Shown here piece by piece: positions 46,079 to 47,091 of a stretch of 47,091 nucleotides of DNA (position 1 is its first letter; the number at the start of each line of letters is the position of its first letter). The notes beneath the pieces are model-generated. The model saw nothing but the letters and a program-made list of their open reading frames with translations. It was not told the origin of the DNA and ran no database searches. The position numbers and the translations under genes were made by a program. This DNA comes from Escherichia coli. Lineage in GTDB: Bacteria > Pseudomonadota > Gammaproteobacteria > Enterobacterales > Enterobacteriaceae. Where the stretch lies: NCBI RefSeq assembly GCF_003334255.1, contig NZ_QOWU01000042.1, one strand, 5' to 3'.

Positions 46079-46705
46079 TTATTCACCAGACTCTAATCTT
46101 TTTTCTCTTTTCTCATCTCTCCTTTTTATTGCCAAATCGTGTTGCTCTTGCAGATACGTGCGTTCTTCGTTTCTATCGCTTGAAGTATATACGTCTGCTT
46201 TTACTTTTTTAGCTCCTTGTGCAATAGGTTTCCAATCCTCTCTTATACCTTTAATTTGTTCTGCAATTTGCGTCAATGGGCTTCTCGCTCCTAGATAACT
46301 TATTCCTTCAAATGTCGCCATGTCATACACATATTCATTTGTTTCTCTATCGTTTGATTTAGGTTTGCTTGCCCAGCTTATATTAATATTATAAATTTGA
46401 TCTTTGATTTGTTCATACTTACAGAGATTGCTGGTAAGTGATTGCCCATTTTTTAACACGCTTACCTTACTAAACGGAATCTCACTTTTTTCTCTATGCT
46501 CCGCATTTACTAGTGGAGGATCAAACACAACCTCAACATTATAGGCAGGTGCGTTCCCTGTATTAGCAATGTTAATATCAAAGTAAAAAGCGGCCCAAGG
46601 GTTTGGCTCAAGTGTTACAACTATATGGGGTTGAGCTGATGCGTCAACCATTCTTTTTGTCTCGTCTGCTCTGAAGTGGTGAAGTGGTTTACTGAATTTG
46701 GCCAC
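46079..46705 (-). CDS. orphan hypothetical protein (208 aa as tracked); 5' end runs into the IS end
   Basis: ORF with a GTG start at 46703..46705; its first 9 codons (MAKFSKPLH) lie inside the terminal repeat region of the adjacent IS. First native ATG would be MVDASAQ at 46649..46651. Confidence 0.5.
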   Translation of the reverse strand: MAKFSKPLHHFRADETKRMVDASAQPHIVVTLEPNPWAAFYFDINIANTGNAPAYNVEVVFDPPLVNAEHREKSEIPFSKVSVLKNGQSLTSNLCKYEQIKDQIYNINISWASKPKSNDRETNEYVYDMATFEGISYLGARSPLTQIAEQIKGIREDWKPIAQGAKKVKADVYTSSDRNEERTYLQEQHDLAIKRRDEKREKRLESGE

Positions 46706-47014
46706 CTGAACAGAGGTGATATGCTCACCTCAGAACAACACAGGTGCTCCAATGAAAAAAAGAAATTTTAGCGCAGAGTTTAAACGCGAATCCGCTCAAC
46801 TGGTTGTTGACCAGACATACACGGTGGCAGATGCCGCCAAAGCTATGGATGTTGGCCTTTCCACAATGACAAGATGGGTCAAACAACTGCGTGATGAGCG
46901 TCAGGGCAAAACACCAAAAGCCTCTCCGATAACACCAGAACAAATCGAAATACGTAAGCTGAGGAAAAAGCTACAACGCATTGAAATGGAGAATGAAATA
47001 TTAAAAAAGGCTAC
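46672..47014 (+). mobile_element. IS3-family IS911-like element, left end and orfA 5' part, interrupted
   Basis: Terminal sequence begins TGAAGTGG; orfA product [21 protein letters not shown]...[15 protein letters not shown] is near-identical to IS911 OrfA as recalled, then diverges after 47014. Confidence 0.75.
46752..47014 (+). CDS. IS911-like transposase OrfA, 5' fragment disrupted by insertion
   Basis: ATG at 46752; helix-turn-helix and leucine-zipper region of IS3-family OrfA; reading frame altered after codon 88. Confidence 0.75.
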
Positions 47015-47091
47015 TGTAGATTCAATCTGTCAATGCAACACCCCTTTCAATTATCTCTTTCGGTGTTTTGAACTTCAGTGTCTTTCTCGGT
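47015..47091 (+). mobile_element. IS30-like terminal inverted repeat and left end (partial, continues beyond window)
   Basis: Sequence from 47015 (TGTAGATTCAATCTGTCAATGCAAC...) resembles the IS30 terminal repeat as recalled. Confidence 0.5.

Follow-up and report, generated by a model that had tools for sequence, protein, structure and literature searches.

The window, by which we mean the whole stretch of 47,091 nucleotides of Escherichia coli DNA that was analysed, closes with pieces of two insertion sequences. The first of them is the left piece of an IS3-family element, IS911, which covers 335 bp on the plus strand (46680..47014) and consists of the terminal repeat and a truncated orfA. 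It is followed up to the last nucleotide of the window by the right end of IS30 on the minus strand (47015..47091), i.e. by the first 77 of its 1221 bp. On the other side of the IS911 piece lie an AbiJ-NTD4 gene (45206-46030) and a gene for a hypothetical protein of 190 amino acids (46079-46651, minus strand), which has no family match; NCBIfam assigned neither this protein nor its AbiJ-NTD4 neighbor to a family. These two genes always accompany this IS911 (44667-46671 in the window; 1-4777 in L004, the locus of strain 2313).

A further feature of the neighborhood is the aldehyde reductase gene ahr, in which an in-frame internal deletion of 885 bp between 7-bp direct repeats was observed (junction 44345-44351). 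The remnant is an open reading frame of 58 codons on the minus strand (44258-44434). The same deletion occurs in three of the 5426 complete E. coli genomes, namely G1/2, G6/7 and G8.

The IS911 piece and the IS30 end in the window

The left inverted repeat of IS911 (approximately 46680-46715, plus strand) opens with TGAAGTGGTTTACTGAATTTGGCCACC, its tip being TGAAGTGG, and its bases line up one by one with those at the left ends of IS911, ISEc52 and the K-12 copies IS911A and IS911B. Over its 335 bp the piece is 98.2% identical to plasmid IS911, 97.6% identical to K-12 IS911B, and 91% identical to both ISEc52 and K-12 IS911A; the K-12 annotation calls the orthologous piece IS911B. The reading frame orfA' (46752..47014, plus strand) starts with the ATG at 46752, continues for 87 codons and two further nucleotides, and is broken within the codon for Thr88. 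The HTH is kept, as is most of the leucine zipper. Residues 9-87 correspond to positions 1-81 of the NCBIfam profile NF033516 (IS3 transposase) with E = 7.6e-14. The frame runs on into antisense IS30 sequence, leading to a called product of 116 amino acids, on which PF01527 was found in the gene calls (loci L047-L052).

A heptamer A-AAA-AAG can be read directly at 47003..47009 (plus strand), in the X XXY YYZ register that is right for orfA. When a −1 slip was simulated at this heptamer, the OrfAB sequence resulted for the reconstructed element as well as for the reference IS911. The role of A-AAA-AAG as the programmed −1 frameshift site of IS911 is well established, reportedly by Polard et al. 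in 1991. The layout of the left repeat, orfA, the A6G heptamer and the OrfAB reading are shared between the window and two intact elements, IS911 from plasmid pE2865-2 and ISEc52. Unlike these, the IS911 of the window is interrupted, its tip is duplicated, its right tip is mutated, its orfB is frameshifted and it has no 3-bp duplication.

The start of IS30 is found five nucleotides downstream of the IS911 heptamer. The terminal inverted repeats of IS30 were defined as 26 bp (TGTAGATTCAAT..GTCAA.GCAACA). The right one (IRR; 47015-47040, minus strand) is matched exactly over 26 bp in the window, with TGTAGATTCAATCTGTCAATGCAACA starting at 47015, and the left one (IRL) is present in Nissle 1917 (L001). 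This 26-mer of the IRR has a single match in the window, while 0 are expected from shuffled sequences. All 77 IS30 bases in the window are the same in the three full-length K-12 copies, IS30A, IS30C and IS30D. From 47015 to the end of the window the minus strand codes for the C-terminus of the IS30 transposase, the stop codon being located at 47022-47024 and the C-terminal codons running on to the window end. The sub-terminal decanucleotide GAGATAATTG is located at 47048-47057 (minus strand); it is cited in PMC12445084, where it is reported to boost IS30 transposition. In front of IS30 stands the left copy of its target duplication, AC (47013..47014), the right copy lying past the window end. 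The window therefore holds the right end (IRR) of IS30 in inverse orientation, and this is IS30 itself and not just an IS30-like sequence.

The first-pass annotation had followed the OrfA frame through IS911 up to a switch at 47015, from where it saw sequence resembling an IS30 terminal repeat. Its breakpoint is right to the base, both in the alignment and in the position of the exact IRR. The resemblance to the IS30 repeat turned out to be a match over the full 26 bp, together with 77 of 77 bases shared with K-12 IS30; the alignment to the references assigns the sequence left of 47015 to plasmid IS911 with the identity given above, and that to the right to K-12 IS30.

The locus in other genomes

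The junction is identical in at least 1401 of the 5426 complete E. coli genomes, and in more than 1000 genomes the identity extends over 492 bp around it at 100%. Those genomes with this junction that were read through contain a complete IS30 of 1221 bp, its 2-bp AC duplication and the dead remainder of IS911. In Nissle 1917 the 1221-bp IS30 lies on the minus strand and its transposase of 383 amino acids is intact (NF033563, 277 bits with a cutoff of 80). The borders of IS30 in this strain are ...GGCTAC|IS30|ACCGCGCTC, with AC on both sides, and the order of features is IS30, distal IS911, a yjhV-like ORF and fecEDCBA. Beyond the junction, the annotation of strain G1/2, the closest relative found, lists the same order of features. 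Its AbiJ gene carries an IS1 that is absent from the window, and G1/2 is therefore not the source genome. The nested arrangement that had been read from the window alone is thus found at full length in the genomes with an identical junction, including the IS30 transposase and the distal part of IS911 for which an extension had been advised.

The window itself ends 77 bp into IS30. From the genomes with the identical junction we infer that its locus would likewise contain a complete IS30, the right copy of AC and the distal IS911. Past 47091, a simple insertion would be expected to continue with the other 1144 bp of IS30, up to a terminal ...TTGAATCTACA, and then with ACCGCGCTCTTGATG of IS911. 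Also expected is the right AC copy, followed by CGCGCTCTTG of IS911.

That IS30 is an insertion is shown by alleles of the same locus that are free of it. Strain 2313 (L004) has the AbiJ-NTD4 gene, the gene for the 190-aa hypothetical protein, IS911, the yjhV-like gene and fecE, without IS30. At the insertion point the IS30-free IS911 allele reads ...AAAAAAGGCTACCGCGCTC..., and the empty site of strain 2313 is AAAAAAGGCTACCGCGCTCTTG / GGCTACCGCGCTC with a single AC. If IS30 and one AC are removed from the Nissle sequence, only 4 out of 1257 positions differ from strain 2313. The empty allele of strain 2313 is also found in the metagenome contig L053. An uninterrupted IS911 occurs in 2436 genomes, and in one of them, strain 2313, it is situated at the locus of the window.

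The opposite case, which the first-pass annotation had named, would be a single contiguous IS variant without a foreign insertion at 47015. It would belong to the IS3 family, and its likeness to IS30 after 47015 would be due to chance or to shared ancestry. Nothing in favor of it was found, and we regard it as vanishingly improbable. Neither the exact IRR 26-mer, for which the shuffles give an expectation of 0, nor the agreement with K-12 IS30 in 77 of 77 bases is accounted for by such a variant; moreover, between the two halves of IS911 stands an element of 1221 bp whose target duplication is 2 bp long, and IS911 is known uninterrupted from the 2436 genomes, with strain 2313 at this very locus. 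The contiguous variant was ruled out by the target duplication and the empty-site alleles.

A near-precise loss of IS30 was observed as well. In L043 (GCA_052257325.1), approximately 340 bp into IS911, the sequence reads GGCTAC-A-ACCGCGCT, a footprint of IS30 loss. It is the exact product of a deletion between the CTAC of the flank (GGCTAC) and the CTAC of the IS30 tip (TCTACA). As this allele exists, IS30-free alleles at the locus can be secondary, and the clean empty alleles may represent the ancestral state or precise excisions. In a metagenome contig (L056, ULWN01009115.1; reverse strand, 11343 onward) an element other than IS30 abuts IS911 at GGCTAC|TGTGAGCC. The transposase of this element is IS256-family-like by eye only, and the contig stops before the structure resolves.

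Between leuX and the block of AbiJ gene, 190-aa gene and IS911, strain 2313 has a P4-like element (primase-helicase, DUF5375), and its identity with the window starts within leuX, with the last 6 nt of that gene. Within the window neither a P4-like element nor an integrase was found. Our literature search returned no useful published account of the linkage between fec and IS911.

Two nested pairs in K-12 MG1655 can be compared with the window. At the orthologous locus (KpLE2 region, yjhV-fecE) the annotation lists IS911B, IS30D, an IS600 fragment and IS911B-1 (insO, insI3). As IS911B and IS30D are annotated at the orthologous locus, the nested structure is already known, and the pair of IS30 and IS911 is an ordinary one in the reference. 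It agrees with the window in its right flank (yjhV, fecE), in the orientation of IS30 after GGCTAC, in the left IS911 piece (97.6%) and in the IS30 end (77 of 77). In K-12 only, a fragment of IS600 of 327 bp stands behind IS30D, and positions 336-453 of IS911 are missing, the element resuming at 454. The heptamer run of K-12 IS911B is one A shorter, its tip has CACA at positions 9-12 where the window has TTTA, it has no 8-bp duplication, and its left flank, yjhE, differs from that of the window. The window type represents a simple insertion whose AC duplication is intact, whereas the K-12 version is a derived rearrangement. The K-12 structure could have arisen by recombination between two copies of IS30, one located in IS911 and the other in IS600. 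The form found in the window, with its perfect duplication, is the simple, primary one and is useful as an ancestor-like version of the more scrambled K-12 structure. We also note that in the MG1655 structure (L002, 12126-14802) the IS600 fragment comes from the orfA side, is located on the left-repeat side of IS30D and is cut at the homologous ...LKKA.

The K-12 and window lineages share the right flank, and their sequences left of the IS911 tip are wholly different. Because the left flanks differ fully up to the tip of IS911, the left boundary can be taken as an old breakpoint.

The second pair is IS911A/IS30A (insN, insI1; prophage CP4-6), where IS30 is located at the same AC of orfA with a 2-bp duplication, as in the window. 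It differs in that IS30 is reversed, the host is 91% identical (ISEc52-like) and the locus is another one. The IS911A/IS30A junction is present in 1026 genomes, and its published description states that "IS911 is incomplete and interrupted by IS30A" (PMC9333248).

IS30 at the frameshift window of IS3-family elements

One genome per bacterial species was scanned for the IS30 repeat, resulting in 34 loci (L009-L042) at which 37 flanks of IS30 ends were read. In 22 of the 37 flanks the neighbor of IS30, or of a relative with the same 26-bp ends, is an IS3-family element, entered at the homologous point approximately 5 nt past the A6G heptamer. Further IS30 junctions at this point were found in L002 (13681-14007) and L007 (2490-3386). 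Flanks on the orfA side finish with ...(I/L/F)LK(K/E/D)A and flanks on the orfB side open with A(Y/F)FA...; aligned to NF033516, the former all end at position 81 and the latter all start at positions 85-87. The IS3-family hosts represent at least 11 lineages, among them IS911, ISEc52-like elements, IS600, and elements in Yersinia, Silvania, Tatumella, Symbiopectobacterium and Kluyvera as well as in Shewanella, Marinomonas, Woeseia, Saccharospirillum and one planctomycete MAG. Several of these hosts have IS30 in both orientations, and several have intact 2-bp duplications (GC, TC, AC). The duplications of other IS30 copies are GC, GC, TC, AC, AA and CT.

The exact 26-bp repeat of IS30 was also seen in marine and environmental bacteria (L012, L020, L022, L023, L025, L028, L030, L042). 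The transposases of these elements are 53-74% identical to that of E. coli IS30.

The half-sites next to IS30 follow the pattern T-AAA-nn-A-n-GC-n-[NN], with 13 nt on each side, which corresponds to a symmetric site of 24 bp. The IS911 site, TTAAAAAAGGCT-AC-CGCGCTCTTGATG, agrees with it at 7 of 7 informative positions in the left half and at 5 of 7 in the right half. The same trend was found in 17 IS30 half-sites outside of IS3 elements. If a weight matrix is built from those 17 half-sites only, the IS911 site comes 9th among the 52,836 positions of the 53-kb sequence reconstructed for the state before insertion, within the top 0.02%. IS30 has probably chosen the IS911 site by its fit to the sequence preference of IS30 itself, in the sense of hot-spot targeting.

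Olasz et al. are said to have described a natural hot spot of IS30 with a symmetric consensus of 24 bp in 1998. Compared with the sites reported here by length and symmetry alone, the 2-bp duplication and the 24-bp symmetry are alike. In PMC12445084 and PMC9333248 the IS30 hot spot is likewise given as symmetric and 24 bp long. Apart from the interruption of IS911 by IS30A, a targeting of the IS911 or IS3 frameshift site by IS30 is not stated in the searchable literature, the text of Olasz et al. 1998 lying outside this scope.

The flanks suggest that the frameshift window of IS3 elements is a natural hot spot of IS30. A broader proposal, which we make tentatively and would not yet call likely, is that IS30 and those relatives that share its 26-bp ends might be directed systematically to the −1 frameshift window of IS3-family elements at the codons ...LKKA|T/A-A-Y/L-F..., because this window happens to fit their 24-bp symmetric preference. 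One must weigh this against a single chance insertion that was inherited, or kept as neutral in a dead element, without any targeting. The fec-linked junction is identical throughout E. coli, which fits a single event, and insertions of one IS into another are expected to last as they impose no cost on the host. A single event does not, however, lead one to expect the same dinucleotide to be occupied in opposite orientation in the 91%-identical IS911A (ISEc52-like), nor the homologous NF033516 positions 81 to 85 to be used in IS600 and at least nine further IS3-family lineages of other genera, nor 22 of 37 flanks to lie at the homologous position. The single-nucleotide precision goes beyond what neutral retention would provide, and the independent weight matrix places the site in the top 0.02%. 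We therefore consider the chance insertion improbable.

If systematic targeting were true, one IS family would habitually inactivate another, using IS3 elements as a harmless landing pad. This would explain the frequent nesting of IS30 in IS911 and IS600, and would represent a natural and testable case of a transposon family with another family as its safe landing site. Annotators could then predict such nested structures.

Decay of IS911 and the duplicated tip

In genomes that share the identical junction, the host element shows several signs of decay. Its orfB has lost 1 bp in the catalytic core, which abolishes the HSDQGSHYTS region, ...VMFHSDQGSHYTS... becoming ...VMFQAIKAVII..., followed by stop codons. 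The right tip of IS911 is TGTTGTGG instead of TGAAGTGG. Two features that mark an IS911 member, a DDE (rve) transposase encoded by orfB and a right repeat that pairs with the left one, lie outside the window, and in these genomes neither is intact. With regard to target-site duplications, which the first-pass annotation had suggested to inspect, IS30 has its 2-bp AC, while for IS911 no 3-bp duplication was found with either choice of the left boundary (CTC or TGG on the left versus GAC on the right). In contrast, ISEc52 in L006 has the canonical length of 1250 bp and a 3-bp duplication, ATC, on each side. As a rule of thumb in ISfinder practice, a nucleotide identity of at least 95% to the reference defines an isoform. 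While the left 335 bp are 98.2% identical to plasmid IS911, the reconstructed IS911 as a whole shares 94.9% of its sequence with that copy and 94.7% with ISEc52, with orfB blocks at 87-93%. Judged from the genomes with the identical junction, the IS911 of the window is a decayed and inactive member, dead also independently of IS30.

Taken as a whole, the locus is almost certainly explained by an IS30 that inserted into a resident IS911 near fecE, the pair now being a fossil. By its usual copy-out, paste-in route a copy of IS30 would have entered the resident element, which lies downstream of fecE and belongs to the island at the tRNA-Leu gene leuX. It would have landed 5 nt past the A-AAA-AAG of orfA, doubling the dinucleotide AC. 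By this event orfA would be split from orfB and the slippery site parted from the sequence downstream, so that IS911 could no longer make the OrfAB transposase. On this reading the nested pair is an old and stable fossil, passed on vertically or along with the fec island. For the fec island at leuX the pair is a stable marker, which is its main use.

The first-pass annotation had further proposed that the nesting marks a rearrangement-prone region and explains the degraded islet, a notion which is weakly supported. The junction is invariant in the at least 1401 genomes mentioned above, and single IS30 copies at hot-spot sites were reported to be stable (PMC9333248), both of which speak against it; what stands is that the left boundary of IS911 is the breakpoint between K-12 and the lineage of the window.

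At this left boundary the tip sequence TGAAGTGG occurs twice in tandem. The second copy (46680-46687) is the true tip, since K-12 IS911A and IS911B, ISEc52 and plasmid IS911 all start there. The extra copy (46672..46679, plus strand) belongs to the flank, repeats in tandem the 8 bp with which the left repeat starts, and is located upstream of the 190-aa gene (minus strand), at a distance of 21-28 bp from its start codon. This duplication, which had already been pointed out as unusual, is real, the chance probability of an exact 8-mer immediately before its own copy being approximately 1.5e-5.

A chance origin of the TGAAGTGG pair was rejected. In the entire window 8 sites of TGAAGTGG were counted compared to 1.15 expected from shuffles; this excess stems from unrelated coding sequence and not from additional IS ends, and probably reflects codon usage. 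The six other sites (12323, 12914, 23598, 25405, 33237, 36883) are in core genes and have no further likeness to an IS911 end.

Every carrier of this left flank has the duplication. For an un-duplicated left junction no perfect match was found in the 5426 genomes, the best matches carrying an 8-bp gap, and where the duplication was seen in metagenome contigs (4) and assembly loci (10), it was always joined to the same flank. As it is always on the same flank, with no un-duplicated form, the duplication appears to be one old and fixed event. Most likely it represents an old slippage at the left-repeat tip of an already dead end.

A different origin would be a relic of transposase action, be it end-targeting or conversion by IS911 or the footprint of a departed element that duplicates 8 bp. 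A hint in this direction is that the first 12 nt of the tip (TGAAGTGGTTTA) are ISEc52-like while the next 323 bp are IS911, as if the tip had been converted, and that the left flanks of K-12 and of the window lineage part exactly at the tip. According to PMC9333248, both IS911 and IS30 can insert at ends of their own kind, accompanied by sequence conversion; such end-targeting yields inverted, head-to-head ends, however, and no direct repeat (PMC9333248). Furthermore, the flank is without a second IS911 remnant, and the 5426 genomes and the metagenome scan contain no intermediate allele. Two bare copies of a duplication would need a kind of end joining that is not expected in E. coli. A transposase relic is accordingly the unlikely alternative, and we favor slippage.

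Two minor observations concern the same boundary. The 12 nt of TGAAGTGGTTTA (46680-46691) resemble both ISEc52 and K-12 IS911A, and the 323 bp behind them IS911 and K-12 IS911B; 3 of the 6 differences from IS911 fall at tip positions 9-11. In L054 (1-57; OAVK01000578.1) an IS629/IS1203-like end, ...CCCGGGGCGGTTCA, is located within the first part of the 190-aa gene, at a distance of 38 bp from the TGAAGTGG pair on its left side, and represents one more IS hit in this small region.
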